A program made the translations under genes and the position numbers. From IMG/VR virus record IMGVR_UViG_2740892431_000022: DNA of 35,244 bases; one strand, 5' to 3'. The notes under the pieces were generated by a model. That model worked only from the letters and a program-made list of their open reading frames with translations, was not told where the DNA came from and did not search any database. Below are positions 3,788 through 35,244 of the stretch, in pieces; position 1 is the stretch's first letter, and each line of letters starts with the position of its first letter. Source of the DNA: a virus (Duplodnaviria; Heunggongvirae; Uroviricota; Caudoviricetes).

Positions 3788-3999
3788 TGTTCTGTATCTC
3801 CGGTATTTTTCTGCCGTTTCCATGCCCGGACAGCGTCGGACAGCTCTTTCAGGCTGTATGCTGCTTTAAGCTTTTCCCATAACCACTGTGTTGTTATGTG
3901 CATCAGCAGGGCAGCCAGGGCTGCCCCCGCACTGAGGCATGTCGCCAGGCCAGTAAGAATCAGTGTCCATGCGGTGATTTCCCTGAGTATGTCAGCCAT
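3784..3999 (-). CDS. Small membrane protein (71 aa)
   Basis: GGGAGG ribosome-binding site 5 nt before the ATG at 3999; one predicted TM helix (WTLILTGLATCLSAGAALAALLM). Confidence 0.55.
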   Translation of the reverse strand: MADILREITAWTLILTGLATCLSAGAALAALLMHITTQWLWEKLKAAYSLKELSDAVRAWKRQKNTGDTEQ

Positions 4000-4880: not shown

Positions 4881-5411
4881 TTACTGCACATCCTGCTCAA
4901 AAGGAATTATTGAAAAATCCTCAATGTCGCTTTTAATGGAAATACCGGGAATATTTTTCACGGCCTCTTTTTCATTCAGAATGGCATCTTTATTTATTTC
5001 CTCCTTTACACGAATAAAGCGCTCAAGCCCCAGACGTCTCAGCAGTTCAATGACATTATCCGCCCCGCGAATGCTGACTGACGGCGGACGGTTTCGCCAC
5101 TGCACCTCGCCGGTGGTGAGGTTAGCGAACTTCACCTTCCCGTTGCCGGTCAGTTCATCACGGTGCGCCTCACACCATGTCTGGATACCGGACTGCAGTT
5201 CGGCCATGCGTTTTTTCAGGCTCTCGGTGAGCGGGGCATAACGTGCAGTGATGTCGCCAATGGTGTCATTCATTTCTGTTTCAGCCCTGACCAGTTCACG
5301 TTGCGCGTCACCAAGCAGTCTGATTCCCTCAATGACCTCTTCGCGTGTCCCCGGCACCCAGAGTGCTGCTGCGGCTTTGATACGTTTTGCCCCTTTTGTA
5401 CTTTTTGCCAT
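4881..5411 (-). CDS. gam: Host-nuclease inhibitor Gam (Mu Gam family)
   Basis: MAKSTKGAKRIKAAAA...WCEAHRDELTGNGKVKFANLTTGEVQWRNRPPSVSIRG...FIRVKEEINKDAIL...EDFSIIPFEQ closely follows my recollection of Mu Gam. Confidence 0.88.
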   Translation of the reverse strand: MAKSTKGAKRIKAAAALWVPGTREEVIEGIRLLGDAQRELVRAETEMNDTIGDITARYAPLTESLKKRMAELQSGIQTWCEAHRDELTGNGKVKFANLTTGEVQWRNRPPSVSIRGADNVIELLRRLGLERFIRVKEEINKDAILNEKEAVKNIPGISIKSDIEDFSIIPFEQDVQ

Positions 5412-20343: not shown

Positions 20344-21459
20344 ATGTCAGCCATTCACATTTTTAAAGCCGGTACTCATACCGATATGCACGGCAAAAAA
20401 CTGCCGTTCACGCCAGACGATCTTGCCGCCTGCGTGAAAGCCTATGACCCGTCCGTCCATGAAGCACCACTCGTGATTGGTCATCCCAGAACGGAAGACC
20501 CGGCGTGGGGCTGGGTGAAAGCCCTGTCGCTCAGCGGCGTCGATCTGATGGCAGAGCCTGCCCAGCTGGACCCGCAGTTTGCTGAGATGGTCACCGACGG
20601 ACGATTCAAAAAAGTGTCCGCCTCTTTCTACCTCCCGGATTCACCGTCCAATCCGAAGCCCGGCGTGCTCTACCTTCGCCATGTGGGCTTTCTCGGGGCA
20701 CAGCCACCTTCCGTCAAGGGGCTGAAACAGGTGTCCTTCAGTGAGCAGGAAGAAGGTGTGGTGGAGTTCGCCGACTGGCAGGCCATCACGAATGCCTCCC
20801 TGTGGGGAAAGCTGCGCGATTTTCTGATCGCCCGCTTCAGTCTGGACGAGGCAGAAAAAGTCCTGCCGGAATGGCAGCTCAACAGTCTGCGCGAAGAGGC
20901 GTACCGCGACACACTGTCGCAGGATGCAGCAGGTGCACAATTCAGTGAGACAGGCCCGGGGCCGTCTTCCGCAAGTAACGAGGAATCATCGATGACAAAA
21001 GAAGAGATTGAAGCCCTTCAGGAGGAGAACCGCCGCCTGAAGCAGCAGGCTGCTGATCGCGATGCGCGTGATGCACAGGTCAGACAGGAGCAACTGCATA
21101 AGGACAATGTGGCCTTTGCAGAAAAACTGGTCGCAGAGGGCCGTCTGGCTCCCCGCGCCTCCTCCGTGGTGGTTGCCCTGCTGGATGCCGTCGCCGGTGG
21201 CGACAAGCCGGTGGAGTTTGCTGAGGGGGAAAGCCGCACACCGCTGGCCACCGCCTTTCGTTCATTGCTCTCCGACGGGGAGCCGGTGATGAATTTCGCC
21301 GAACAGGCCACAAAAGAGCGTGTCGGCGACACGGTGAAGGTGGATGTGGCAGAGTTTGCGGAAGCCGATCCTGAGCGTCTGGCCCTGCATCAGAAAGCAG
21401 TGGCCCTGTCCAAAAAAGAAGGCATCAGCTATGAGGCTGCTGTCGCACGCTGCCTGTAA
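20344..21459 (+). CDS. Head maturation protease/scaffold (Mu I-like)
   Basis: 371 aa; N-terminal protease-like domain and C-terminal coiled-coil/acidic scaffold-like region; directly upstream of the major head gene. Confidence 0.82.
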   Translation: MSAIHIFKAGTHTDMHGKKLPFTPDDLAACVKAYDPSVHEAPLVIGHPRTEDPAWGWVKALSLSGVDLMAEPAQLDPQFAEMVTDGRFKKVSASFYLPDSPSNPKPGVLYLRHVGFLGAQPPSVKGLKQVSFSEQEEGVVEFADWQAITNASLWGKLRDFLIARFSLDEAEKVLPEWQLNSLREEAYRDTLSQDAAGAQFSETGPGPSSASNEESSMTKEEIEALQEENRRLKQQAADRDARDAQVRQEQLHKDNVAFAEKLVAEGRLAPRASSVVVALLDAVAGGDKPVEFAEGESRTPLATAFRSLLSDGEPVMNFAEQATKERVGDTVKVDVAEFAEADPERLALHQKAVALSKKEGISYEAAVARCL

Positions 21460-21473
21460 TTTAAGGAGAGAGC

Positions 21474-22427
21474 ATGTCTGATTACTTAAAAGGTAAACGT
21501 GTCGTTGATCCGGTACTGACCAGTATCGCCCGTGGCTATAAAAATGCCGCATTCATCGGCGAACGTATTTTCCCCGTCGTGCTGACGGACAAGGAAGGCG
21601 TGCGTGTACCGACCTTCGGGAAAACCGCCTTTGTGGAATATGACACCGAGCGTGCCGTCGGGGCGGACAGCAATGTTCTGGTCCGTGAAAAAACAGGCAC
21701 GCTGGACCTGGTGCTGGGTGAACACGATCTGGCTGCGCCGGTGGACTATCGCGAGCAGGCGGAGTCCATGTTTAACGAAGAGAGCAAGGCCATCCGTCGC
21801 GCCACGAATGGCGTGAACCTGCGCCGTGAACTTATCGCTGCCCGTCTGGCTCAGGATGAAAAGGTCTACCGTACCGGGCACGTCAAAAAACTGACAGCCA
21901 GTGATCGCTGGGCCGGTGGTAAGGGGGACCCCATCGGGGTGATTGAAGCCGGTATGGAAGCGGTCCGTACGGCCACGGGGCTGCGTCCTAACCTGATGAC
22001 CATGGGGGCCGGCGTGATGGCGCTGCTGAAGTTCCACCCGGCGATTCAGGCCGCCATCGGAGCCAACGAACGCAAGCGCATCACCACAGAAATCCTGCAG
22101 GACCTCTTTCAGATCGAAGAGATCGTCATCGGTGCCCCAGTCTCCCTGCCGTCCATGAAAGCGGCAATGGATAAGAACAGCGTGCCGGCGGATATCTGGG
22201 GAGACAATCTGATGCTGCACTATGTCGGCAAACCGCAGCCGGGGGCGGACAGCGCGGACGAGAACGAGCCGTCCTTCGGCTACACCCTGCGTCGTAAGGG
22301 GATGCCTGTTGCCGACAAATACGACGGAGCCGGTGGCAAGGTGAAGTACTGCCGTTATACCGATATCTACAAAGTCGCCGTGGTTGGTGGCGATGCCGGG
22401 TATCTCATTACCGGTATCAGTAAATAA
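21474..22427 (+). CDS. Major head subunit (Mu T-like)
   Basis: 317 aa; N-terminus MSDYLKGKRVVDPVLTSIARGYKNAAFIGERIFPVV typical of Mu-type major capsid proteins. Confidence 0.88.
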   Translation: MSDYLKGKRVVDPVLTSIARGYKNAAFIGERIFPVVLTDKEGVRVPTFGKTAFVEYDTERAVGADSNVLVREKTGTLDLVLGEHDLAAPVDYREQAESMFNEESKAIRRATNGVNLRRELIAARLAQDEKVYRTGHVKKLTASDRWAGGKGDPIGVIEAGMEAVRTATGLRPNLMTMGAGVMALLKFHPAIQAAIGANERKRITTEILQDLFQIEEIVIGAPVSLPSMKAAMDKNSVPADIWGDNLMLHYVGKPQPGADSADENEPSFGYTLRRKGMPVADKYDGAGGKVKYCRYTDIYKVAVVGGDAGYLITGISK

Positions 22428-22436
22428 GGAGGCGTT

Positions 22437-22775
22437 ATGGGAACCACTCAGCAGGTCATTCTGATCACAACCGTAACGGCAGGGGCAGCACTGGCACAGC
22501 AGCGTTTTGTCGGGGCAGATAATACCCCCTGTAAAGCCGGTGCCGCAGCGCTCGGGGTTGCCGAAGTGGATGCTGTTACCGGCGACAGCACGCCGGTGAG
22601 CGTTCTGGGCATTATTGCTGTCGAGGCCGGGGCCGCTGTCAGCCGTGGTGTGGCTGTTCAGTCAGATGCTCAGGCCAGAGCCGTGCCGCAGTCCGGCGAC
22701 GGTAAATCCTGTGGTATTGCACTTGATGAAGCCGGGGGTGAAGGCGACGTCATTCGTATCCTGCGCGGGGTGTGA
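22437..22775 (+). CDS. Hypothetical head-associated protein (Ala/Val/Gly-rich, 112 aa)
   Basis: ORF directly after the capsid gene. Confidence 0.5.
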   Translation: MGTTQQVILITTVTAGAALAQQRFVGADNTPCKAGAAALGVAEVDAVTGDSTPVSVLGIIAVEAGAAVSRGVAVQSDAQARAVPQSGDGKSCGIALDEAGGEGDVIRILRGV

Positions 22776-22776
22776 C

Positions 22777-23223
22777 ATGTACTGCACCCTGGAGGATTTG
22801 CTTGCGCAGGTGCCGGAGCGGACGCTTATCGAGCTCACCAGTGAAGAGATGGACTTCGACTCACCTGCAACAGTGAATACCCGTGTGGTGGACAGCTGTA
22901 TCCGCTATGCCGACGAGCTGATTGATGCCCATCTGCGCGGACGCTATATCCTGCCACTGGCAGAGATACCGACTGTTCTGCGGGACATTGCCATCACGCT
23001 GGTCCGTTACCGGCTCTACGCCCGCCGCCCGGAAGGTGACCTCCCGGATACGGTGAAGGATGACCACAAAGAAGCGCTGCGGCAACTCAGGGAGTTACGT
23101 GATAACAGGCTCACGCTGGGGCTGCCGTCCACTCAGAAAGATGTGCCTGAGCCTGGCGAGTTTCGTGTACGCAGTCGCCCGGCTACTTTCGGCGGTCGTG
23201 ACGGTTTACTGGAGAAATACTGA
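22777..23223 (+). CDS. Mu gp36-like protein (DUF1320-type)
   Basis: Start at the ATG at 22777 (MYCTLEDLLAQVPERTLIEL...), just after the upstream stop. Confidence 0.7.
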   Translation: MYCTLEDLLAQVPERTLIELTSEEMDFDSPATVNTRVVDSCIRYADELIDAHLRGRYILPLAEIPTVLRDIAITLVRYRLYARRPEGDLPDTVKDDHKEALRQLRELRDNRLTLGLPSTQKDVPEPGEFRVRSRPATFGGRDGLLEKY

Positions 23224-23687
23224 TGAACGTTCTGCCCGTCCTTGATGCGGTACTGGCCCGGTTACGCGAGAAGCTGCCGCAACTGCAGGTGGAGTACTTC
23301 CCGGAGAAACCGGCTGAATATCGCCTGAACCATCCGGTTGGCGCGTTGCTGTTGAGCTATGCCGGTTCGCGCTTTGACAGGCCGGATGATACCGGTGCAG
23401 TGATCCAGTCTCAGACTATCCAGCTCTGCGTCACGGTGGTCTTCCGCCAGCTCAACGGTAAAAAAGGGGCGATTAATGTCCTGGATGCTGTCCGCCGCAT
23501 TCTCGGTGGCCACACCCCGCCCGGCTGCCGCCGCCGTATCTGGCTGACCCGCGAGGTGTTTATCGGTGAAGTCAGGGGGCTGTGGCAGTACGCCCTCGAC
23601 TTCGCGACTGAAAGCGTCTTTATCGAAGACAGCGATTTACCGTCCGGCCCGCTGTTAACCGAAGTGAACTATGAGGAAAGCGAGTGA
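23223..23687 (+). CDS. Mu gp37-like protein (DUF1834-type)
   Basis: 154 aa; coupled to the previous gene. Confidence 0.7.
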   Translation: MNVLPVLDAVLARLREKLPQLQVEYFPEKPAEYRLNHPVGALLLSYAGSRFDRPDDTGAVIQSQTIQLCVTVVFRQLNGKKGAINVLDAVRRILGGHTPPGCRRRIWLTREVFIGEVRGLWQYALDFATESVFIEDSDLPSGPLLTEVNYEESE

Positions 23688-23938
23688 TGAAAGAATACCG
23701 CTATTCCGGCCCGGCCAGCGGCGTCACGCTGTCGGACGGAACCGAAATCCTGCTCTGGCCGGGGAAGACGGTTTCCCTGCCGGAGGAGCATGACTACGTG
23801 AAGGTACTGGTGGCGCTGAAACATCTGACGCCGGTACCTGAAGAGACTAAACCCGCCGGCACACCGGCTGTGCAGTCACCAAAGCGCAGAAGCAGCAGTG
23901 ACAGCGAAGTGAAAACGGAGGACACCCATGGCAGCTAA
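23684..23938 (+). CDS. Hypothetical small protein (84 aa)
   Basis: Coupled ORF upstream of the sheath gene. Confidence 0.5.
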   Translation: MMKEYRYSGPASGVTLSDGTEILLWPGKTVSLPEEHDYVKVLVALKHLTPVPEETKPAGTPAVQSPKRRSSSDSEVKTEDTHGS

Positions 23939-25355
23939 CTATCTGCATGGTCCCGAAACCATTGAGGTGGAAAACGGTGCCCGCCCGGTTAAAACGGTGA
24001 AATCTGCCGTTATTGGCCTGATTGGTACCGCCCCGATGGGGGATGTCAATACGCTGGTACAGTGCCTGTCTGAGAAAGACGCAGCGGCATTTGGCAGCCA
24101 GTTCACCGGCTTTACCATTCCGCAGGCGCTGGATGCGATTTATGACCATGGTGCAGGTATCGTTCTGGTCATTAACGTCCTCGACCCGGCGAAACATAAA
24201 ACGGCGATCGAGGATGAGGTGGTTACCTTTGACAAATCGACAGGGCAGGCCAGACTGGCGCATCCGGTTGTCGCTAATGTGGTGGTGAAAAACAGTGAAG
24301 GCAGCACCTCCCACACGGCGAACACGGACTACCGTGTTGATGCGCAGGCGGGTGTGCTCACGAACCTGGGCAAGGCTATTGAGGCCGGTGGCAGCGTGAA
24401 GGTGAGCTATGAGTACGCGGACCCGTCGAAGGTGACTGCGGCGGACATCATCGGCGGGGTGAACAGCGCCGGAAACCGAACCGGCATGAAGCTGCTTAAC
24501 GACAGCTTCAACCTGTACGGCTATTTCGCCAAAATTCTGATTGCGCCGGTGTTCTGCACCCAGAAGAGTGTCGCAGTTGAGCTTATCGCCATGGCAGAGA
24601 AGCTGGGCGCGGTAACCTACATTGATGCGCCTGTCGGTACCACCTTTGCACAGGCTCTGGCAGGTCGTGGCCCGGAAGGCACCATCAACTTCAATACCAG
24701 CTCCGACCGCGTCCGTCTGTGCTATCCGCATGTGAAGGTATATGACCCGGTGACAAACACAGAGCGTCTGGAGCCGCTCAGCCAGCGTGCAGCAGGTCTG
24801 CGTGCCAGAGTCGATCTGGACAAGGGCTACTGGTGGTCATCCTCCAATCAGGAGATTCTGGGGATCACTGGCGTGGAGCGCCAGCTGTCCGCGATGATTG
24901 ATGACCCGCAGAGTGAGGTGAACCTGCTTAACGAACAGGGGATCACCACGGTATTCAGCAGTTACGGCAGCGGCCTTCGTCTGTGGGGTAACCGGACGGC
25001 AGCATGGCCAACGGTCACCCATATGCGTAACTTTGAGAACGTTCGCCGCACCGGTGATGTGATCAACGAGTCCATTCGTTATTTCAGCCAGCAGTACATC
25101 GACATGCCGATTACTCAGGCGCTGATTGATGCACTGACGGAGTCGGTCAACGCCTACGGTCGCAAAATGACTGGTGATGGTGCGGTACTGGGCTTCCGTT
25201 GCTGGTTTGATCCGGCCCGCAATCCGGAGACGGAGCTGGCCGCCGGGCACCTGTTGCTGAGCTACAAATATACGCCACCACCGCCGCTGGAGCGACTGAC
25301 GTTTGAGACTGAGATCACCTCGGAATACCTGTTAACCCTGAAAGGGGGCAACTGA
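23928..25355 (+). CDS. Tail sheath protein
   Basis: 475 aa; followed immediately by the tube gene; sheath-like length and sequence character. Confidence 0.88.
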   Translation: MAANYLHGPETIEVENGARPVKTVKSAVIGLIGTAPMGDVNTLVQCLSEKDAAAFGSQFTGFTIPQALDAIYDHGAGIVLVINVLDPAKHKTAIEDEVVTFDKSTGQARLAHPVVANVVVKNSEGSTSHTANTDYRVDAQAGVLTNLGKAIEAGGSVKVSYEYADPSKVTAADIIGGVNSAGNRTGMKLLNDSFNLYGYFAKILIAPVFCTQKSVAVELIAMAEKLGAVTYIDAPVGTTFAQALAGRGPEGTINFNTSSDRVRLCYPHVKVYDPVTNTERLEPLSQRAAGLRARVDLDKGYWWSSSNQEILGITGVERQLSAMIDDPQSEVNLLNEQGITTVFSSYGSGLRLWGNRTAAWPTVTHMRNFENVRRTGDVINESIRYFSQQYIDMPITQALIDALTESVNAYGRKMTGDGAVLGFRCWFDPARNPETELAAGHLLLSYKYTPPPPLERLTFETEITSEYLLTLKGGN

Positions 25356-25876
25356 TGTCAAAGATTGAGATAAACCGCATCACGAATGCCAACATCTATC
25401 TGGATGGTACTAACCTGCTGGGACGGGCTGAGGAAGTTAAACTCCCCGATGTCTCCATGATTATGCAGGAACACAAGGCGCTGGGGATGGTGGGTAAGGT
25501 GGAACTCCCGGCTGGTTTTGACAAACTGGAAGGCGAAATCAAATGGAACAGCTTTTACCGCGATGCGATGCTGTCTGCCGCGAACCCGTACAGGTCGCTG
25601 GCACTGCAGTGTCGTTCCAGCGTCCAGCGCTACAGCTCGCAGGGGCTGATTGACGAAATCCCGCTGGTCACCTTCCTGACGATTATGTTCAAGAAGAACC
25701 CGCTGGGGACGTTCAAACAGCACGAGAACGCCGAGTTCTCCAGTAGCTTCACCTGCACGTATATCAGACAGGTACTGGATGGTGAAGAGCTGCTGCAACT
25801 GGACTATCTGGCCAACATCTTCCGGGTCGGCGGTGTTGATCAACTGACTGACTACCGTATCAATATCGGGGGCTGA
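25355..25876 (+). CDS. Tail tube protein
   Basis: 173 aa; ATGA-coupled to the sheath gene. Confidence 0.85.
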   Translation: MSKIEINRITNANIYLDGTNLLGRAEEVKLPDVSMIMQEHKALGMVGKVELPAGFDKLEGEIKWNSFYRDAMLSAANPYRSLALQCRSSVQRYSSQGLIDEIPLVTFLTIMFKKNPLGTFKQHENAEFSSSFTCTYIRQVLDGEELLQLDYLANIFRVGGVDQLTDYRINIGG

Positions 25877-25878
25877 CG

Positions 25879-26160
25879 GTGAGTGTTGAACTGACGGATA
25901 AAGGAGGACGATGTGCGGCACTGGGCATGTCAAATGGTACGTGGTTTACCCTCCTTGATATTCCGGGGGTGGAAACCCTTTTTAATACCCGTAAAACCAA
26001 TGACCCGATTGACTGCACACGTTCAAAGGCCCGCAAACTGGCGGATTTGATTGAAGCATGGGAGCCTCCCGACCACTGGTTCTCCGGCATCGGCAAATCT
26101 GAGGGAAAGACGCTTCTCATCGCTTTCCTGCGTAACTGCAAGGGGTTTCGCACTTGCTGA
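25879..26160 (+). CDS. Hypothetical protein (93 aa, GTG start)
   Basis: ORF between the tube and tail-chaperone genes; followed by a terminator-like hairpin. Confidence 0.45.
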   Translation: MSVELTDKGGRCAALGMSNGTWFTLLDIPGVETLFNTRKTNDPIDCTRSKARKLADLIEAWEPPDHWFSGIGKSEGKTLLIAFLRNCKGFRTC

Positions 26161-26167
26161 CATCACA

Positions 26168-26190
26168 GGGGCTCCGGCCCCTTCTTCTTA
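26168..26190 (+). terminator. Putative rho-independent terminator
   Basis: GGGGC-tccg-GCCCC (26168-26181) followed by TTCTTCTTA. Confidence 0.5.
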
Positions 26191-26236
26191 ATCTCCTTTA
26201 ATATCCGTCACGCGCTTCTCCCGACATACTGCCCTG
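26187..26236 (+). promoter_or_regulatory. Putative late promoter for the tail operon (diverged copy of the late motif)
   Basis: CTTAA (26187-26191), TTAATATC (26198-26205) and CTGCCCTG (26229-26236) at the same spacing as the other two sites. Confidence 0.35.
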
Positions 26237-26257
26237 AACTTACACAGGAGCACAATC

Positions 26258-26593
26258 ATGTCACAGACCCCATCCGATACTTTTAAATTGTCTTATCCCT
26301 TCACCACTGCTGCAGGCACCAGAATTGAGCTGGTTGAACTGAAACGCCTGACGGTAAAAGACCTGAAGCAGGTGCGCAAAATCAGCAAAAACCCGGCAGA
26401 CTGGGACGAACCGCTGATTGCCCGCAGTACTGGTCTTCTCCCGGAAGATCTCGACAATATGGATCTGGCTGATTACCTGCAGTTACAGAAACGATTTCAG
26501 CTCATCACGGGGATGGGTGAGAGCAACCAGGGCGCTGACGCAGGCGCAGGGGCTGCTGGCGAGATGGTTCCGGTTTCAGCCGGGGGAGATTGA
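26258..26593 (+). CDS. Tail assembly chaperone (gpG/gpE-like)
   Basis: 111 aa directly upstream of the tape measure gene; overlapping extension ORF in another frame. Confidence 0.75.
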   Translation: MSQTPSDTFKLSYPFTTAAGTRIELVELKRLTVKDLKQVRKISKNPADWDEPLIARSTGLLPEDLDNMDLADYLQLQKRFQLITGMGESNQGADAGAGAAGEMVPVSAGGD

Positions 26594-26675
26594 TGCCCTC
26601 GATACTGACGATCTGGAGATGTGGCTGGAGCAGGCTGAAGAGCAAATAAAAAGCGAGTACGGCGACAAATCATAG
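26258..26675 (+). CDS. Predicted frameshift-extended chaperone product (gpGT/E+E'-like), shift near 26582-26590
   Basis: Second ORF (26418..26675, frame offset +1/-2) overlaps the 3' end of the chaperone gene; G-run GCC GGG GGA GAT TGA immediately before the stop. Confidence 0.5.
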
Positions 26676-26750
26676 TACAGACAGCCGCCAGTAGCGGCTG
26701 TTCTGCGTTATTCCCTCACGTCTTTTCACCTTCCCCGGAGGTTAACCACT

Positions 26751-29700
26751 ATGTCGGGACAGTTTTCAGTCGGCGTTGTTATCGGCGGGATGATTGGCAG
26801 CACATTCCGTTCTGCAATGAGCGGTACCCGCCGTGCGCTTGATTCCCTGAGCGATACCTCACGCCGCCTGCAGGAACGTCAGAACGCTTTAACCCGTGCA
26901 ACAGAACGTTATGGTCAACTGGGTTCTTCCCGGATGCAGCATCTCAACAGCGAGCTGCTGCGGGTAAGCCGCACCATGGAGCAAATTGAGCGCCAGCAGC
27001 GCCGTCTGTCAGCGGCATCCGCTACCAGTGATGCGCTGAAAGCTAACCGCATGGCGCTGTATGGTCAGGGGATTGAAGCGTATGGCATGGCACAGACTGT
27101 TTATCATACGGTTTCCCCTGCCGTTCAGCAGTCCATGTCTTTTCAGGACAAAATGATTGATATGTCGATCACCGCAAAATATGACAATAAAACGCGGGAT
27201 GCACTTGCCGGACAGATAAAAGGCTGGGCGCTTAAATACAATCAGTATCAGGATGAGCTGCAGGAGGCGGTGGGTTCACTCATCAGCGACAATATTGATA
27301 ATGTGTCAGATATCGGTTTTCTGATGCCGGATATTGCCCGCGCGGCAACGGCAACACGCACGTCTGCTCAGGACTGGGCAAAAGTGGCCGCAGTCTGGCA
27401 AAACTCCCTGAAAGGTGCGGCCAGAGATTTTGGTGCCGTTCAGAATATTATGGCTTATGCCGGTGACCAGGGGTCATTTGAAATCCCGGATCAGGTCAAG
27501 TGGATGCAGTCCCTGGCCCCAATGATGGCGGGTATTGCCAGTGGAAAAGAGGCTGTTGCTGAAATCGGGGCCAGTCTCCAGATAGCAAAAATCGGTGCAG
27601 GTTCCACCGACGAAGCAGCTAATAATTTTAAAAACTTTCTTACCAAAATTTTTGCCCGCGATACTCAGAAACAGTTTGCTGATCTGGGTATTGATTTGCA
27701 GGGATCTATTGCGAGTTATAAAGCTGCGGGGATCTCTCCGATTGAAGGGATGTTGAGTGTTATAGAACGTTACCTCAATGCCAAAAGCCCCGAAGCGCTG
27801 GCCGGCTTCAAATCAGCCATGAAAATAAAGAATGATACGGCAAGAGATGAGGCACTTCAGGCTCTGGCGAAAAACTTTGGTCTGGGCGATATGTTCGCGG
27901 ATATGCAGGTCATGGCATTTATCCGCCCGATGCTGGCCAACATGGACAGATATCGAGAGATCCGTGCCGGTGCTCTCAGGGCTGCGGATAACGATTTGCT
28001 TGCCAGTGCTTATGATCAGCGGCTGAAATCTCCCCTTGAAGCCACTAAAACACTTATGGTCAGCAGTCGCGATCTGGCAATTACGCTGGGCGATCAATTA
28101 GCTCCATCTTTTATTTCTTTGACTCAGGAACTGCTTCCACTCATTCAGGGGGCAAAACACTGGGTAGCGACTCACCCGCAATTTGTCAGTGGGGCTTTTA
28201 AGCTCATCAGTGCGCTCCTTGCGATTAAGATAGCGACTGTTGGTCTCAAACTGGGGCTGAATCTCCTTATTTCCCCCTTTGTAAGTGTCTGGAAAAATGC
28301 TGTTTTACTTCGGGCCAACTGGCTTCGTCTGTCGCTCGCACTGGGGCAAGGCGGTAAGCTCCGCTGGCTGGTGACCGGATTTAGCGCCGTCGCCAGAGGA
28401 GCCAGAACACTGAGTGGCGTGCTCTCCGGGGGGCTGGTTCGCGGAATTATGCTCGCCGGACGTGCTGTTCTCTGGATTGGACGTGCGCTGATGATGAATC
28501 CCATCGGTCTCGTTATCACCGCTGTCGCGGCAGCAGCTTACCTTATCTACCGCAACTGGGGGGCAGTCAGTGGCTGGTTTAAACAGCGCTGGGCAGACAT
28601 TCAGGAAGCCTTTAACGGCGGCATTGTGGGAATTGGTAAGTTACTGATTAACTGGTCGCCGGCAGGCCTGCTCTATAAAGCCTTTGCGGCTGCGCTGAAA
28701 TATTTCGGCGTTGCTCTGCCGGCAAAGTTCACCGACTTCGGTGGCCATCTTATCGACGGTCTGATTAACGGTATCAAAAACAAATGGGGGTCGCTCAAAT
28801 CCAGTGTAACCGGAATGGGTGACAGCATCAGTAGCTGGTTTAAACAGTGCTGGGCTGACATTCAGGAAGCCTTTAACGGCGGTATCGCGGGAACTGGTAA
28901 GCTGCTGATTAACTGGTCGCCGGCAGGTCTGCTCTATAAAGCCTTTGCAGCTGCGCTGAAATATCTTGGTGTTGATCTGCCGGCAAAGTTCACCGACTTC
29001 GGTGGCCATCTTGTCGACGGTCTGATTAACGGTATCAAAAACAAATGGGAGTCGCTCAAATCCAGTGTAACCGGAATGGGTGACAGCATCAGTGGCTGGT
29101 TCAGCGAAAAGCTGGGCATTCATTCGCCGAGCCGCGTGTTTATGGGCTTTGGTGACAATATAAGCTGGTTTAAACAGTGCTGGGCTGACATTCAGGAAGC
29201 CTTTAACGGCGGTATCGCGGGAACTGGTAAGCTGCTGATTAACTGGTCGCCGGCAGGTCTGCTCTATAAAGCCTTTGCAGCTGCGCTGAAATATCTTGGT
29301 GTTGATCTGCCGGCAAAGTTCACCGACTTCGGTGGCCATCTTGTCGACGGTCTGATTAACGGTATCAAAAACAAATGGGAGTCGCTCAAATCCAGTGTAA
29401 CCGGAATGGGTGACAGCATCAGTGGCTGGTTCAGCGAAAAGCTGGGCATTCATTCGCCGAGCCGCGTGTTTATGGGCTTTGGTGACAATATCGCGCAGGG
29501 GGCCGCCATTGGCCTGCAGCGGACCACTCCGCTTGCAGCTCTGGCCGGGCAGCGAATGGCCAGTGAACTGCTCCCCAAAATGCCCGTGAGCATTCAGGGG
29601 CCAGAAATACGGGATAACACTTCAGGTGTTCGCTTCAGTATGCCGTTGCCCGATATCAATGGGTTTATGTCGTCTGCTAAAAATGCGATCGGAGCCGTAA

Positions 29701-30032
29701 TCAATAGTTTGTCTTCCATGCCCGCTATCCCGCTCTCCACCCGGGCATCGATTTTACCAGGGCAACGTCTGGCAAATGAGATGACACCGGATGTTCCCCG
29801 TATCCCCTCGCCTGAAATCATGGCTGCCGGATATTCAGGCCGTGGTGCAGCTGCAACCGGCGGTGGAACGTCTGGTGGTATCCAGGTCAGCTTTAATCCT
29901 CAGTTTTTCCTCAATGGCAGGGAAACCACAGCGCCTGCAGGACTGACTGGTGCCCTGAATATGAGTCTGCATGAGCTGGAAAAAATGCTGGAGCGTCTGC
30001 TGGCTCAGAAACAACGTAAGGAGTACCGCTGA
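26751..30032 (+). CDS. Tail tape measure protein
   Basis: 1093 aa, alpha-helical/hydrophobic character, follows the chaperone pair; contains an internal tandem repeat array. Confidence 0.9.
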   Translation: MSGQFSVGVVIGGMIGSTFRSAMSGTRRALDSLSDTSRRLQERQNALTRATERYGQLGSSRMQHLNSELLRVSRTMEQIERQQRRLSAASATSDALKANRMALYGQGIEAYGMAQTVYHTVSPAVQQSMSFQDKMIDMSITAKYDNKTRDALAGQIKGWALKYNQYQDELQEAVGSLISDNIDNVSDIGFLMPDIARAATATRTSAQDWAKVAAVWQNSLKGAARDFGAVQNIMAYAGDQGSFEIPDQVKWMQSLAPMMAGIASGKEAVAEIGASLQIAKIGAGSTDEAANNFKNFLTKIFARDTQKQFADLGIDLQGSIASYKAAGISPIEGMLSVIERYLNAKSPEALAGFKSAMKIKNDTARDEALQALAKNFGLGDMFADMQVMAFIRPMLANMDRYREIRAGALRAADNDLLASAYDQRLKSPLEATKTLMVSSRDLAITLGDQLAPSFISLTQELLPLIQGAKHWVATHPQFVSGAFKLISALLAIKIATVGLKLGLNLLISPFVSVWKNAVLLRANWLRLSLALGQGGKLRWLVTGFSAVARGARTLSGVLSGGLVRGIMLAGRAVLWIGRALMMNPIGLVITAVAAAAYLIYRNWGAVSGWFKQRWADIQEAFNGGIVGIGKLLINWSPAGLLYKAFAAALKYFGVALPAKFTDFGGHLIDGLINGIKNKWGSLKSSVTGMGDSISSWFKQCWADIQEAFNGGIAGTGKLLINWSPAGLLYKAFAAALKYLGVDLPAKFTDFGGHLVDGLINGIKNKWESLKSSVTGMGDSISGWFSEKLGIHSPSRVFMGFGDNISWFKQCWADIQEAFNGGIAGTGKLLINWSPAGLLYKAFAAALKYLGVDLPAKFTDFGGHLVDGLINGIKNKWESLKSSVTGMGDSISGWFSEKLGIHSPSRVFMGFGDNIAQGAAIGLQRTTPLAALAGQRMASELLPKMPVSIQGPEIRDNTSGVRFSMPLPDINGFMSSAKNAIGAVINSLSSMPAIPLSTRASILPGQRLANEMTPDVPRIPSPEIMAAGYSGRGAAATGGGTSGGIQVSFNPQFFLNGRETTAPAGLTGALNMSLHELEKMLERLLAQKQRKEYR
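28572..29492 (+). repeat. In-frame tandem repeat array inside the tape measure gene
   Basis: Two 330-bp units (28833..29162 and 29163..29492) identical except the last base, preceded by a diverged 261-bp copy (28572..28832); each full unit encodes 110 aa. Confidence 0.85.
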
Positions 30033-30916
30033 TGTTTGCCGTACTGGGTGATATTGAGTTTGAGCTGATTACCTACTGGGACGGCTTCGAGGCCACGTTC
30101 GGCGTCGATTATGCGGAGCATGCCCGCATCGGGGGTAAGCCTGGCCTGCAGTTCGTCGGCGACAGGCTGGACGAAATCCAGATAACTCTGGTTTTCCATC
30201 AGCATTATTGTGTACCCGATGTGGAGCTGGCGAGACTGCGAACAGCCATGAAAGCCCATCAGGCACTGGCGCTGGTCTTCGGCAACGGTGACTATCGCGG
30301 CTGGTTCGTGATTACCGATGTGACTGCAACCAGCGAGCAGACTGACAGTACCGGCAACGTGCTGGCTGTCAGTGCCACCGTGTCTCTCCGGGAATACACC
30401 GGTGACCCGAAAAATCCTCTGCAACCACCGGCAATACGCACGAAGCTCCCGGGTGTCGGGGCGGTCTCCGGTGCCATTCCTTCGCCTTCAGGGGTGGCGC
30501 AGTTCATCCGCAACGGCGTCAACTATGCGAAACAGGCGCAGTCTGTACTCCAGACCACTATCAGCGCCGTTCGGGTGACACAGAAAATGAAGGATAACCC
30601 CGTTGTCGCACTGACCCGTGTGCCGGGGCTGATGAGCGGACTGGGTAATATCTCCGGGGCTCTGGGGAAAAGTGTTCCGGCGTTTAACGCACTCTCTGAA
30701 TCCATGCCCGATGCCATCAGTCTGGCCAGAACAGCCAGCGAAGCAGCCACGTATGTACAGCAGGCACAGTCTGCGCTGAGTGGTGTGGACAAAAGAAATA
30801 TTGCAGGTGCTCTGGATACCGTTTCCGGGCAGCTTAACGCCGCCGGCACAGCATTCAACCGCATGTCTCCGGGATTAAGTGCAATGGCCACCAGAATACT
30901 GACGAGGAGTGTGTGA
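30032..30916 (+). CDS. Tail protein, P2 gpU / Mu N-like
   Basis: Immediately after the tape measure gene; N-terminal ...GKPGLQFVGDRLDEIQITL... resembles the gpU-type pattern; C-terminal Ala/Ser-rich extension. Confidence 0.65.
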   Translation: MFAVLGDIEFELITYWDGFEATFGVDYAEHARIGGKPGLQFVGDRLDEIQITLVFHQHYCVPDVELARLRTAMKAHQALALVFGNGDYRGWFVITDVTATSEQTDSTGNVLAVSATVSLREYTGDPKNPLQPPAIRTKLPGVGAVSGAIPSPSGVAQFIRNGVNYAKQAQSVLQTTISAVRVTQKMKDNPVVALTRVPGLMSGLGNISGALGKSVPAFNALSESMPDAISLARTASEAATYVQQAQSALSGVDKRNIAGALDTVSGQLNAAGTAFNRMSPGLSAMATRILTRSV

Positions 30917-31128
30917 TGTTTCTTGAACATATTACCCGTGACGGAGAGCGCTGGGATTCGCTGGCATGGCAGTACTACGGTGACCCGCTGGGCTATCCCC
31001 GGATTATTGCAGCCAATCCGCACGTGGCCATCACGCCGGTGCTGCCCTCCGGGTTGTTGTTACTGATCCCGGTTATTGAGGCTGAAGATGCCCGTACAGA
31101 AGAGGATATTGCCCCATGGCTGAGATAA
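30916..31128 (+). CDS. Tail protein X-like (LysM-like)
   Basis: About 70 aa; ...ERWDSLAWQYYGDPLGYPRIIAANPHVAITPVLPSGLLLLIP... matches the P2 gpX pattern; GAGGAG ribosome-binding site. Confidence 0.75.
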   Translation: MFLEHITRDGERWDSLAWQYYGDPLGYPRIIAANPHVAITPVLPSGLLLLIPVIEAEDARTEEDIAPWLR

Positions 31129-32270
31129 ACAGTACTGCGCAAGCCACATCAGCGTTAACCGGCGTCAGCGATGTGCTGACGCCGGTATTCACTCTGTGGT
31201 ATCTGCAGAAAAACATCACCTCTGATATCGCGCCTTATGTCACCCGTGTGGTCTGGAGCGATAACATCAAAAATGAGTCCGATACCATTGAGGTGGAGCT
31301 GGACGACACCGATGGCCGCTGGCTGGATAAGTGGTATCCGGGCAAGGGTGACACGCTGACGCTGAAAATGGGTTATCAGGGCGAGAAACTGCTGTCCTGC
31401 GGTACATTCTCAATAGACGAGATCGAAGTGAGTTCGCCCGCGTCCGTTGTCGCTATCCGTGGGGTGGCCACCTCGGTTAACAGTGCTCTGCGGACTAAAT
31501 CCAGCCGTGGTTTTGAGAACACCACGCTGGCAGCTGTTGCGGGGCGGATTGCCAGAAAGCACCGGCTGAAACTGGTGGGCAGCATTGAGTCCATCAGAAT
31601 CGACCGGGTGACCCAGTATGCTGAAACCGACGTGGGTTTTCTGCGCCGGCTGGCCAGCGAGTATGGTTATGCAGTGAAAGTGGTCAGTGACCAGCTGATT
31701 TTTTCTCATCTGGCCACACTGCGCAGTCAGGAGCCGGTCAGGCAGTTAAAACCGCAGGATGTGGCCCGCTTTTCCCTGCGTGACACCATCAACCGGGTCT
31801 ATAAATCTGCAAAGGTAAAACACCAGAAAAGCAGCAGTAAAAAACTGATCGTCTACGAAGCTGATGGTGGTACCCGTGAAAGCGACAAAAAGCTCAAAGG
31901 TGGTAAGGTTACCAGCGCTGACTCACTTAAAGTTAACAGCCGCGTCAGCGACCCGGACAGTGCCCGGATTAAAGCGGATTCAGCACTGGCCAGACATAAC
32001 GAATACCAGCAGAACGGCTCCCTGACGCTGACGGGAACACCTCAACTGACAGCAGGCAACAAAATTGAACTGGTGGGTTTTGGGCAGTTATCCGGGCCAT
32101 GGCTCATAACCACTGCCCGCCATGCGTTTGACCGTAACAGCGGCTACACCACAGAGCTGGAAGTGGCACGGGGGCCAGTCACAAGAGGGAAAAAACAAAA
32201 AACTCAGAAACTCACGGTTTATCACCCGGATGGCAGTACATCGACGGTGATTAAGGAGAAGAAAAAATGA
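31116..32270 (+). CDS. Late control D-like tail/baseplate hub protein (P2 gpD / Mu P-like)
   Basis: 384 aa; conserved position between X and V. Confidence 0.82.
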   Translation: MAEINSTAQATSALTGVSDVLTPVFTLWYLQKNITSDIAPYVTRVVWSDNIKNESDTIEVELDDTDGRWLDKWYPGKGDTLTLKMGYQGEKLLSCGTFSIDEIEVSSPASVVAIRGVATSVNSALRTKSSRGFENTTLAAVAGRIARKHRLKLVGSIESIRIDRVTQYAETDVGFLRRLASEYGYAVKVVSDQLIFSHLATLRSQEPVRQLKPQDVARFSLRDTINRVYKSAKVKHQKSSSKKLIVYEADGGTRESDKKLKGGKVTSADSLKVNSRVSDPDSARIKADSALARHNEYQQNGSLTLTGTPQLTAGNKIELVGFGQLSGPWLITTARHAFDRNSGYTTELEVARGPVTRGKKQKTQKLTVYHPDGSTSTVIKEKKK

Positions 32271-32863
32271 CTGGTGTCACTCGTCAGGTCGGTACGGTCA
32301 GTGCCGTTGATGCCGACAGGGTTCAGGCCCGCGTTCGTCTGCCTGAATGCGATAACCTGCGCACAAACTGGCTTAACGTGCTGCAGCGCAATATCCAGGA
32401 TAACAAAGATTACTGGCTCCCTGACGTGGGGGAGCAGGTTGAGGTGCTGCTCGATGCCAACGGCGAGGATGGTGTTATTCTGGGCGCGGTGTATTCAGAC
32501 GTCGATAAACCACCGTTCAGTGACAAAAATATCCGGGGAACCCGGTTTGCTGATGGTGCAGAGTACAGCTACAACCGGAAGACGCACACTCTGATCATCC
32601 GGGGCGGCATTGAGCATATTGTCATTGAGTGTGGTGCTGATGTGGTATTGAAAACACAGAAAGCCACGATTGACGCACCGGAAACCGAACTTACCGGAGA
32701 TCTGCGTGTCAGGGGTAAACTGATTTACGAAGGAGGCATGGCGGGTTCTGGTGGTGAAGGTGTTACCGCGACCATCCATGGCAATATCGAGATTAAAGGG
32801 AATGCCCATGCCACGGGCAGTATGTTGTCTGATGGCGAAAACTCCAGCCACCACTCCCACTGA
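32267..32863 (+). CDS. Baseplate spike protein (gpV-like)
   Basis: 198 aa; ATGA-coupled; Gly-rich C-terminal region. Confidence 0.82.
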   Translation: MTGVTRQVGTVSAVDADRVQARVRLPECDNLRTNWLNVLQRNIQDNKDYWLPDVGEQVEVLLDANGEDGVILGAVYSDVDKPPFSDKNIRGTRFADGAEYSYNRKTHTLIIRGGIEHIVIECGADVVLKTQKATIDAPETELTGDLRVRGKLIYEGGMAGSGGEGVTATIHGNIEIKGNAHATGSMLSDGENSSHHSH

Positions 32864-32917
32864 GCTTTTTAAACGCCTTTAATATCAGCGTTCCCGCACG
32901 GGGGCAATACTGCCCCC

Positions 32918-33265
32918 ATGAAAACAACCTCAGTATTCTGGCAACCAGCCCTGCAGGCTCCCGGCGAAATTGTCCGGGGGCTGGATGATATCCGGCAGGC
33001 GATTCAAATTATCCTGCGGACTCCCCGCGGCAGCGACCCGCATCGCCCGGAGTTCGGCAGCAATCTGCATCTTTATATCGACTGGCCTGTAGACCGGGCC
33101 ATTCCGCATGTGGTGCGCGAATCCGTCGATGCCATCCGGCGCTGGGAGCCCCGCTGCCAGCTTATGTCAGTTAAACCCGCCGTCGACGGCGAACATCTTA
33201 CGCTCCGGGTGAGCTGGAAAGGCTCAGACGGACAGACCCGGACTCAGGTGCTGCTATGGCGCTGA
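32918..33265 (+). CDS. Baseplate protein W (gpW/gp25-like)
   Basis: 115 aa; conserved position. Confidence 0.82.
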   Translation: MKTTSVFWQPALQAPGEIVRGLDDIRQAIQIILRTPRGSDPHRPEFGSNLHLYIDWPVDRAIPHVVRESVDAIRRWEPRCQLMSVKPAVDGEHLTLRVSWKGSDGQTRTQVLLWR

Positions 33266-34359
33266 CAGAACCCGATTTTATTGAACGCGATGCCGACAAA
33301 ATCACGGCAGAAATGATTGCGAAGTATGAAGCGGATACCGGCAAAACGCTGTACCCGGCACAGGCAGAACGTCTGCTGATTGATCTGTGGGCCTATCGCG
33401 AAATGCTGGTCAGGGTTGCGGTACAGGAGGCAGCAAAGCAGAATCTGGTCGCCTTTGCCCGTGAGCCGATGATTGATTACCTCGGTGAACTGGTTGGTGT
33501 ATACCGTCTTGCCGCGCAGCCTGCCACCACCACGCTCCAGTTCTCCGTAGATGAGGCACTGGCCATTGATGTGCTGATCCCGGCAGGCACCCGCGTCAGC
33601 GCTTCCGACAGCGTTATTTTTGCCACCGATACAGATGTGGTACTGAAGGCCGGATTGCTGCTGGTCAATGTCACGTCCACCTGTACCGAACCCGGTACCG
33701 CTGGTAACGGCTGGCAACCTGCGCAGGTCAGTCAGTTACTCGATGAGATTGATAACGTCGACCTGCTGGTGAGCAATCTGACGGCCAGTTCCGGCGGTTC
33801 AGAACAGGAAGACGATGACAGGCTCCGGGAGCGTATCAGGCTGGCCCCGGAGTCATTCACCAATGCCGGAAGCCGTGGCGCATACCGCTTTCATGCCATG
33901 CAGGCCCATCCCAACATTGTCGATGTTGCTGTGCTTTCCCCGGTTCCCGGGACCGTAGATCTGTATCCGCTGCTCAGTACCGGTCTGCCGGACGGCGGTG
34001 TTCTCACGCTGGTAGAGAGTTTCTGCTCTGATGAGAAAGTCAGGCCACTCACTGATACAGTGCGGGCTAAAACACCAGTGAAGGTGGATTACACCATTGA
34101 AGCCAGGATTACGATCTATCGTGATCAGGATGCCAGGTCTGTAAAAGATGCCGCTAACAGCGCCATACAGAACTGGGTGGCATCACGTGCCGCCACGCTG
34201 GGGCGCGATATTGTCCCCAGCCAGATTATCAGTGCATTGTCCGTTTCCGGGGTGTACCAGGTTGAACTGGTGACACCGGCACTGCGGGTGGTGGCAGAAA
34301 ACGAATGGGCAAACTGTACGGCAATCACTCTTAACATGACTGGAGTGTCTGATGACTGA
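33256..34359 (+). CDS. Baseplate protein J
   Basis: 367 aa; conserved position after W. Confidence 0.85.
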   Translation: MALTEPDFIERDADKITAEMIAKYEADTGKTLYPAQAERLLIDLWAYREMLVRVAVQEAAKQNLVAFAREPMIDYLGELVGVYRLAAQPATTTLQFSVDEALAIDVLIPAGTRVSASDSVIFATDTDVVLKAGLLLVNVTSTCTEPGTAGNGWQPAQVSQLLDEIDNVDLLVSNLTASSGGSEQEDDDRLRERIRLAPESFTNAGSRGAYRFHAMQAHPNIVDVAVLSPVPGTVDLYPLLSTGLPDGGVLTLVESFCSDEKVRPLTDTVRAKTPVKVDYTIEARITIYRDQDARSVKDAANSAIQNWVASRAATLGRDIVPSQIISALSVSGVYQVELVTPALRVVAENEWANCTAITLNMTGVSDD

Positions 34360-34930
34360 GCCATTACAACTCCCGCCACCGCTTGAGGGTGATATCAGTC
34401 TCAGGACGCTGGGAAGACTGGCAGGACGGCTGGATAACATCGACCTGAGCGTACTGATGGTCTTTCTCGTCGATATCGTCGACAGTTCCGCGCTGCCATG
34501 GCTGGGCGAGCAGTTCTCACTGTCTGGCGATGGCTGGGAGCTGGCGGAATCGGACGATGTTCGCCGCATGCTTATAAAAGCAGCCATCGAACTGCACCGG
34601 TATAAAGGGACGCCGTGGTCAATCCGGGAAGTTATCCGCCGTTTTGGCTTTGGTGAAGTGGATCTGATTGAAGGCACAGGTCGTCTCAGTTACGACGGCA
34701 ATCGCAGCTATAACGGACTGTTTGTTCATGGAGATGCAGCCGCCTGGGCAGTTTATCGCGTTATTCTGAAACAGCCCATTACTAACGATCAGGCCGCGAT
34801 GCTGCGTCAGACGCTGGCTGCATTTGCACCGGCCTGCTGCCATCTGGCCAGCCTGGAGTATCAGTCTGTGGCCATTCGCTATAACAATACAGCCATCCAT
34901 GATGGCAGTTATAACCACGGGAGCAGTTGA
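34352..34930 (+). CDS. Tail protein I-like (baseplate)
   Basis: 192 aa between J and the tail-fibre gene. Confidence 0.78.
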   Translation: MTEPLQLPPPLEGDISLRTLGRLAGRLDNIDLSVLMVFLVDIVDSSALPWLGEQFSLSGDGWELAESDDVRRMLIKAAIELHRYKGTPWSIREVIRRFGFGEVDLIEGTGRLSYDGNRSYNGLFVHGDAAAWAVYRVILKQPITNDQAAMLRQTLAAFAPACCHLASLEYQSVAIRYNNTAIHDGSYNHGSS

Positions 34931-34932
34931 TT

Positions 34933-35244
34933 ATGGGAAACCTGAATGAAACAGAAAAGTGGGAAGAAAATATCTATCAACTGGAGACATCAGATCCGGT
35001 TCTGGGTGGTGCAGACGGGATATCAAATCGAGCCCCCCGGCAACTGGCAAACAGGACGAAATGGCTGAAGAAAAAAACGGAGGAAGCCGCACAGTCACTG
35101 GCTGAACACGTACGTTCCCGTAACCACCCGGACGCGACACTGACAGCTAAGGGGTTCACCCAACTGAGCAGTGCCACCAACAGCACCTCTGAAACGCTGG
35201 CCGCCACACCAAAAGCCGTCAAGGCTGCATACGACCTTGCAGCC
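34933..35244 (+). CDS. Tail fibre protein, N-terminal part (continues past the window end)
   Basis: ATG at 34933; open to the window end (104 codons checked by hand); N-terminus MGNLNETEKWEENIYQLETSDPVLGGADGISNRAPRQLANRTKWL typical of conserved tail-fibre N-termini. Confidence 0.8.
   Translation, partial: MGNLNETEKWEENIYQLETSDPVLGGADGISNRAPRQLANRTKWLKKKTEEAAQSLAEHVRSRNHPDATLTAKGFTQLSSATNSTSETLAATPKAVKAAYDLAA

Follow-up and report, generated by a model that had tools for sequence, protein, structure and literature searches.

An apparent 330-bp tandem duplication in the tape measure gene of a BcepMu-like Escherichia coli prophage is probably a scaffolding artefact

The IMG/VR virus record IMGVR_UViG_2740892431_000022, whose full 35,244 nucleotides are referred to here as the window, contains what reads as a tandem duplication of 330 bp within the gene for the phage tail tape measure protein (TMP). 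Comparison with public records and with related prophages indicates, with a probability that we put at about 0.88, that this duplication is a scaffolding artefact, i.e., an overlap between two contigs that was left unmerged and joined by a single N. The TMP gene as written in the window is 3282 bp in length and encodes 1093 amino acids, whereas the true gene is, on this comparative evidence, most likely the 2952-bp, 983-amino acid allele found in the nearest relatives.

The element that carries the gene is, judged by its gene content and termini, a BcepMu-like (Bcepmuvirus) transposable prophage inserted in E. coli dgcQ. Annotation and Pfam matches identify genes for a DDE (rve) transposase, a MuB-like ATPase, Mor, Gam, a Mu-type portal and Mu F. 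The left end of the prophage (TGATCAG...) lies at position 752 of the window, the right end reads ...GCATCA, and both ends are flanked by the 6-bp direct repeat ACTGGT. The dgcQ gene, encoding a cellulose-regulating diguanylate cyclase, is split by the prophage, and positions 1-751 of the window are its 5' part. In E. coli AF3, AF14 and MSB1_4I, the insertion site is identical to that of the window. The TMP of PhiKM, which is classified as a Bcepmuvirus, is 96.9% identical to that of the window; a literature search on PhiKM and on Bcepmuvirus tail data found nothing relevant. The baseplate J-like gene is annotated as a frameshifted pseudogene in AF14 (26176-27278), and is an intact 367-amino acid open reading frame (ORF) in the window (33256-34359) and in AF3.

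The TMP gene and the two ORFs that precede it are as follows.

26258-26593, + strand: tail assembly chaperone gene Phage_TAC_7 (PF10109, 74.8 bits), directly upstream of the TMP gene.
26418-26675, + strand: overlapping extension ORF of the chaperone, just upstream of the TMP gene.
26751-30032, + strand: TMP gene as written (3282 bp, 1093 amino acids; from the ORF list and translation).

The first-pass annotation, made from the sequence alone, had called the gene a tape measure gene, and profile searches bear this out: the protein matches PF10145 (73.9 bits against a cut-off of 33.2, residues 159-340), TIGR01760 (57.6 bits against a cut-off of 28.8, residues 120-493) and phrog_28 (E = 3e-132), along with further tape-measure PHROGs. 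Its position between Phage_TAC_7 and the gpU, X and D genes agrees with this assignment, the complete gene order being sheath, tube, DUF7739, Phage_TAC_7, TMP, gpU, X, D, V, W, J, I. The chaperone gene and its extension ORF immediately upstream help to identify 26751-30032 as the tape measure gene, and the 2952-bp genes of the relatives are annotated as 'phage tail tape measure protein'. Relative to 26258-26593, the extension ORF is shifted by +1/-2, where -1 would be usual; a -2 shift was reported for Mu by Xu et al., as cited in PMC2628397. Hydrophobic windows are present in the TMP at residues 478-508 and 579-600. The AlphaFold2 single-sequence model of residues 590-1000, made without an alignment, is mostly helical and unreliable (mean pLDDT 39.6). 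Autocorrelation of Trp, Phe and Tyr positions detected no 11-residue aromatic periodicity in the TMP, and the lag of 18 reaches only z = 1.7.

The array as written has the layout that the first-pass annotation had described, with a diverged 261-bp copy followed by two 330-bp units, all in frame with the ORF 26751-30032, and direct comparison confirmed it. Tandem Repeats Finder reports a 330-bp period over 28833-29491 (2.0 copies, 100% matches) and a 261-bp period over 28567-29101 (2.0 copies, 93% matches), and a repeat search places the starts of the three copies at 28572, 28833 and 29163. The sequence 28833-29161 is exactly that of 29163-29491, a run of 329 bp at an offset of 330, which is far above chance expectation for an exact repeat. 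The two 330-bp units, 28833-29162 and 29163-29492, thus differ only in their last base, where 29162 is A and 29492 is C. The A at 29162 matches neither of the possible parental bases, which are T (28832) and C (29492). The diverged unit A1 is identical to the first 261 bp of the second unit at 244 of 261 positions (93.5%), and the ends of A1 and A2 have in common an exact run of 43 bp (28790-28832 and 29051-29093). In the protein, A1 corresponds to residues 608-694 and the two 330-bp units to residues 695-804 and 805-914. The parts of the array, as we interpret them, are listed below.

28572-28832, + strand: unit A1, a real diverged repeat of 261 bp (87 amino acids), present in AF14, AF3 and MSB1_4I.
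28833-29093, + strand: unit A2, the real second unit of 261 bp (87 amino acids), equal to the first part of the second unit as written.
29094-29161, + strand: first part of the conserved segment GWFSEKLGIHSPSRVFMGFGDNI downstream of the units, and probable end of the left assembly piece (from the translation and the public record).
29162, no strand: junction base, written A in the window but N in the public contig JSVP01000032.1; probably a one-base placeholder.
29163-29491, + strand: probable redundant copy of 329 bp, an exact repeat of 28833-29161 with which the right assembly piece would begin.

Across the join at 29162, the sequence reads GACAATAT-x-AGCTGGTTT. On the opposite strand, an ORF of 270 amino acids runs through the repeats (28641-29453, - strand), and similar antisense ORFs of 303 and 384 amino acids are found in the related record IMGVR_UViG_2740892433_000005; these look like by-products of stop-free repeated sequence and not genes.

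The evidence that carries the artefact reading comes from the public source of the window. A search with the exact gp25 protein led to the contig JSVP01000032.1 of NCBI assembly GCA_001651605.1, which, among the matches listed, is the only one with a 3282-bp TMP gene. This contig is the same as positions 22918-35244 of the window (12.3 kb), and extends two bases past its end, with one position excepted: the A at 29162 of the window is an N in JSVP01000032.1 (position 6245 of the compared region), and 329 identical bases lie on either side of that single N. A genuine tandem duplication would be expected to show a called base at the junction derived from the parental flanks, and the base in the record is N. 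The first-pass annotation had left the choice between a very recent duplication and an assembly artefact, and the N at the junction favors the artefact and tells against the duplication. Exact look-up of the 1093-amino acid protein found no record, because the codon containing the N is translated as X in the public product. The text of the window seems to write ambiguous bases as A, a practice that may mask scaffold joins in other windows as well.

Comparison with relatives leads in the same direction. A related TMP gene is present in 636 of 5,426 complete E. coli genomes, where the best-matching genes are either 2952 bp in length, which is 330 less than 3282, or 2691 bp, another 261 less, and none is 3282 bp long. 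When 29162-29491 is left out, the window differs from the complete genome of AF3 by three single-nucleotide polymorphisms (SNPs) and no indels over 34,914 bp, and from MSB1_4I, which carries a 2952-bp gene, by seven SNPs; taking out the redundant copy gives back the sequence seen in the closest relatives. The DNA of AF3 is identical over 20689-29161 of the window and has one mismatch over 29163-35244. AF14 aligns to the window identically apart from the absent 330 bp, and in the alignment UPEC129 has one chimeric unit and lacks the redundant copy. The 983-amino acid allele of AF3 and AF14 (WP_016234462.1) sits among the same neighboring genes and at the same insertion site as the gene in the window, and differs in lacking 29162-29491. 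Related prophages had been proposed as the comparison for the two-copy state, and every close relative (AF3, AF14 and MSB1_4I) is single copy.

The junction itself was likewise not found in the collections searched. A 50-bp probe centered on the junction with base A had no match in the 5,426 complete E. coli genomes, nor did the same probe with C, T or G at that base, whereas a matched 50-bp probe for the A1/A2 junction, used as a positive control, was found in 572 of the 5,426. Whatever its central base, the junction is also absent from IMG/VR, where 35 contigs hold the normal sequence as a control, from the JGI metagenomes and from the GTDB representative genomes. Among 120 close protein homologs, there is none with two HSPSR motifs or with a length of 1093 amino acids. 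Three things here are directly observed: the record has an N, the 329 bp to its left and right are identical, and the junction occurs in none of the other collections searched.

The order of the assembly events and the software responsible are what we infer from these observations. The two real 261-bp units, A1 and A2, are 93% identical and would break short-read assemblies at this spot. Graph-based assemblers tend to break at branch points, and 28833 is the first base after such a branch point in the assembly graph. The left piece would have run through A1, A2 and 68 bp further, ending at 29161, and the right piece would have begun at the first base of A2, just past the 43-bp stretch common to both units. 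Since the right piece would start at A2 while the left piece would end at 29161, the two would overlap by 329 bp; the overlap would have gone unrecognized, and the pieces would have been joined with one N, which is displayed as A in the window. The reading frame is kept by the sum of 329 and 1, which is 330; this has a 1-in-3 chance of occurring and has no evidential weight. One point that fits this scheme less well is that the putative end of the left piece, 29161, coincides with no repeat boundary.

The same locus is damaged in other assemblies. IMGVR_UViG_2740892433_000005 has a single N in its TMP array (position 3846, reverse complement), and beyond this N the sequence goes back by 892 bp and starts again, with eight mismatches. 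It resembles the window in having one N in the array, a repeat after the N and a junction found nowhere else, and differs in that its overlap is 892 bp with eight mismatches and breaks the frame, whereas the overlap in the window, of 329 bp, has no mismatch and keeps the frame by chance. PhiKM has a gap represented by a run of Ns in the array (about 4915-5240), and several contigs (L018, L052-L054 and L055) begin or stop inside it.

The principal alternative is that the duplication is real and very recent, with A2 and a 23-amino acid segment containing the HSPSR motif doubled, the N hiding one uncalled junction base, and the prophage encoding a private TMP of 1093 amino acids. We consider this unlikely. 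It has in its favor that the extra copy is in frame, that a lone N could in principle be an uncalled base within a real duplication, and that TMP length scales with tail length (the values for TP901-1 and KS10 are given below). Apparent perfect in-frame tandem duplications with no N at the junction also occur in the same region in relatives, one of 303 bp in GCA_018489775.1 (4595-5200, 1084 amino acids) and one of 36 bp in GCA_026214595.1 (5068-5139, 995 amino acids), each a singleton in a draft assembly, and they make a real event conceivable. In addition, of 150 distant TMP representatives, 9 naturally have two HSPSR-type motifs at a spacing of 50-293 amino acids, so that such an architecture is tolerated. 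Against a real duplication, the N falls precisely on the junction and is flanked by 329 identical bases left and right, that junction is absent from all other collections searched, and the nearest relatives, which are only three to seven SNPs away, are single copy. The single-N overlap artefact at the same locus in IMGVR_UViG_2740892433_000005 is a close parallel to what is seen here, and the shared dgcQ site implies vertical inheritance, with no selection for an in-frame product.

Routes by which such a duplication might have arisen were considered separately. Slipped mispairing or unequal crossover was rejected as the origin of the 330-bp copy, since its breakpoints share no microhomology, which also counts against a real duplication in general. 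An origin at the nearest homeologous patch (GGTGACAnnATC) was rejected because it predicts a period of 333 bp and a different junction. Derivation of the junction base from an allele with an ATA codon was likewise dismissed: no such single-copy sequence was found in the GTDB representatives or JGI metagenomes, and the question is moot given the N. All 35 of the IMG/VR contigs with the normal sequence carry C at that codon position.

Least probable, and clearly less likely than a real duplication, is that the assembly is wrong and the true allele is neither the two-unit form nor the form written, consisting instead of at least three 261-bp units or of a mixed population that the assembler did not resolve. 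Alleles of one, two and three units do occur on identical backbones, and IMGVR_UViG_2740892433_000005 suggests at least four units that an assembler could not resolve; here the left piece covers A1, A2 and the HSPSR segment without a break and the right piece A2 and the HSPSR segment, each in agreement with the two-unit allele of AF3, and a third 261-bp unit is indicated nowhere in the sequence.

With the 330-bp copy most probably set aside as an unmerged overlap, there remains a real form of repeat variation at this locus, that of the 87-amino acid unit. Together with the motif WF..LGI[HN]SPS[RK]VF, this unit forms a module of ~135 amino acids (window 28572-29560, residues ~608-940). The module is conserved in more than 7,700 TMP representatives, 1,083 of them at E <= 1e-10, and the motif is present in 94 of 150 distant representatives; in the window TMP, the module has no Pfam match at E <= 0.01. 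Most long TMP representatives contain a single unit; two to four are found in some. A link to the conserved TMP segment of ~130 residues sensed by Avs18 (PMC13581612) was set aside, since the text of that paper does not specify the segment.

Allele sizes, taken from protein lengths and anchor distances, are 896 amino acids for one unit, 983 for two and 1070 for three (loci L003, L004, L010 and L038 are among the examples), and the 983-amino acid form is the commonest among the close homologs listed. The sequence of IMGVR_UViG_2740892433_000005 hints that its true allele has four or more units. The unit of the one-unit allele begins like A1 and ends like A2, and the middle unit of the three-unit allele begins like A2 and ends like A1; by this chimeric structure, the one-unit and three-unit alleles are the reciprocal products of unequal crossover. 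Even where the 800 flanking residues are identical, alleles of differing length are found, and this holds in several distinct backbone groups; such copy-number differences on identical backbones indicate that the changes are recurrent and recent. The expectation that the locus would be unstable by recombination, raised when the repeat was first noticed, therefore holds for the real 261-bp units, whose copy number has changed repeatedly, and falls away for the 330-bp copy. Natural gain and loss of repeat units has been described by Belcaid et al. 2011 (PMC3271669) and for the repeats of TP901-1 (PMC5099701), and the 87-amino acid units resemble these in being gained and lost (one to three copies). 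They differ in size, the Belcaid-type repeats being of 11 or 18 amino acids and marked by aromatic residues, a pattern that the array in the window does not show.

In other phages, the length of the TMP sets the length of the tail, for which lambda gpH and T4 gp29 are the classic evidence, as cited in the literature. In TP901-1, deletions and a duplication in the TMP scale tail length with a slope of about 0.146 nm per amino acid, and an insertion or deletion of 29% changed tail length by about 30%; the Mu-like myovirus KS10 has a TMP of 811 amino acids and a tail of about 140 nm. Engineered TMP duplications in lambda gpH, TP901-1 and T4 gp29 lengthen tails, whereas the extra segment here is most likely absent from the DNA. 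The prediction of a longer tail than in a single-copy relative, which had been drawn from the repeat as written, thus loses its basis, as the additional 110 amino acids are most likely missing from the real genome; the true gene being most likely the 983-amino acid allele, no change in tail length is expected.

If the duplication were true, the contractile tail would be expected to be about 16-19 nm (about 11%) longer than that of relatives with a 983-amino acid TMP, with about 4-5 extra tube and sheath rings on the assumption of about 4 nm per ring. This Mu-like myovirus would then have, in a 600-bp stretch of its TMP gene, a hot spot for tail-length variants of 36, 261, 303 and 330 bp. With the artefact as the preferred reading, the window contains an ordinary tape measure gene, the true form of which has already been sequenced in hundreds of E. 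coli genomes, and the 330-bp copy has little biological weight. Because the window displays that N as an A, a perfect repeat interrupted by a single orphan base should raise suspicion of an unmerged overlap, and the lesson is to look for an N in the source record before interpreting such repeats. On a modest scale, the copy-number changes of the 87-amino acid unit may show how tail length varies naturally in a phage with a contractile tail.
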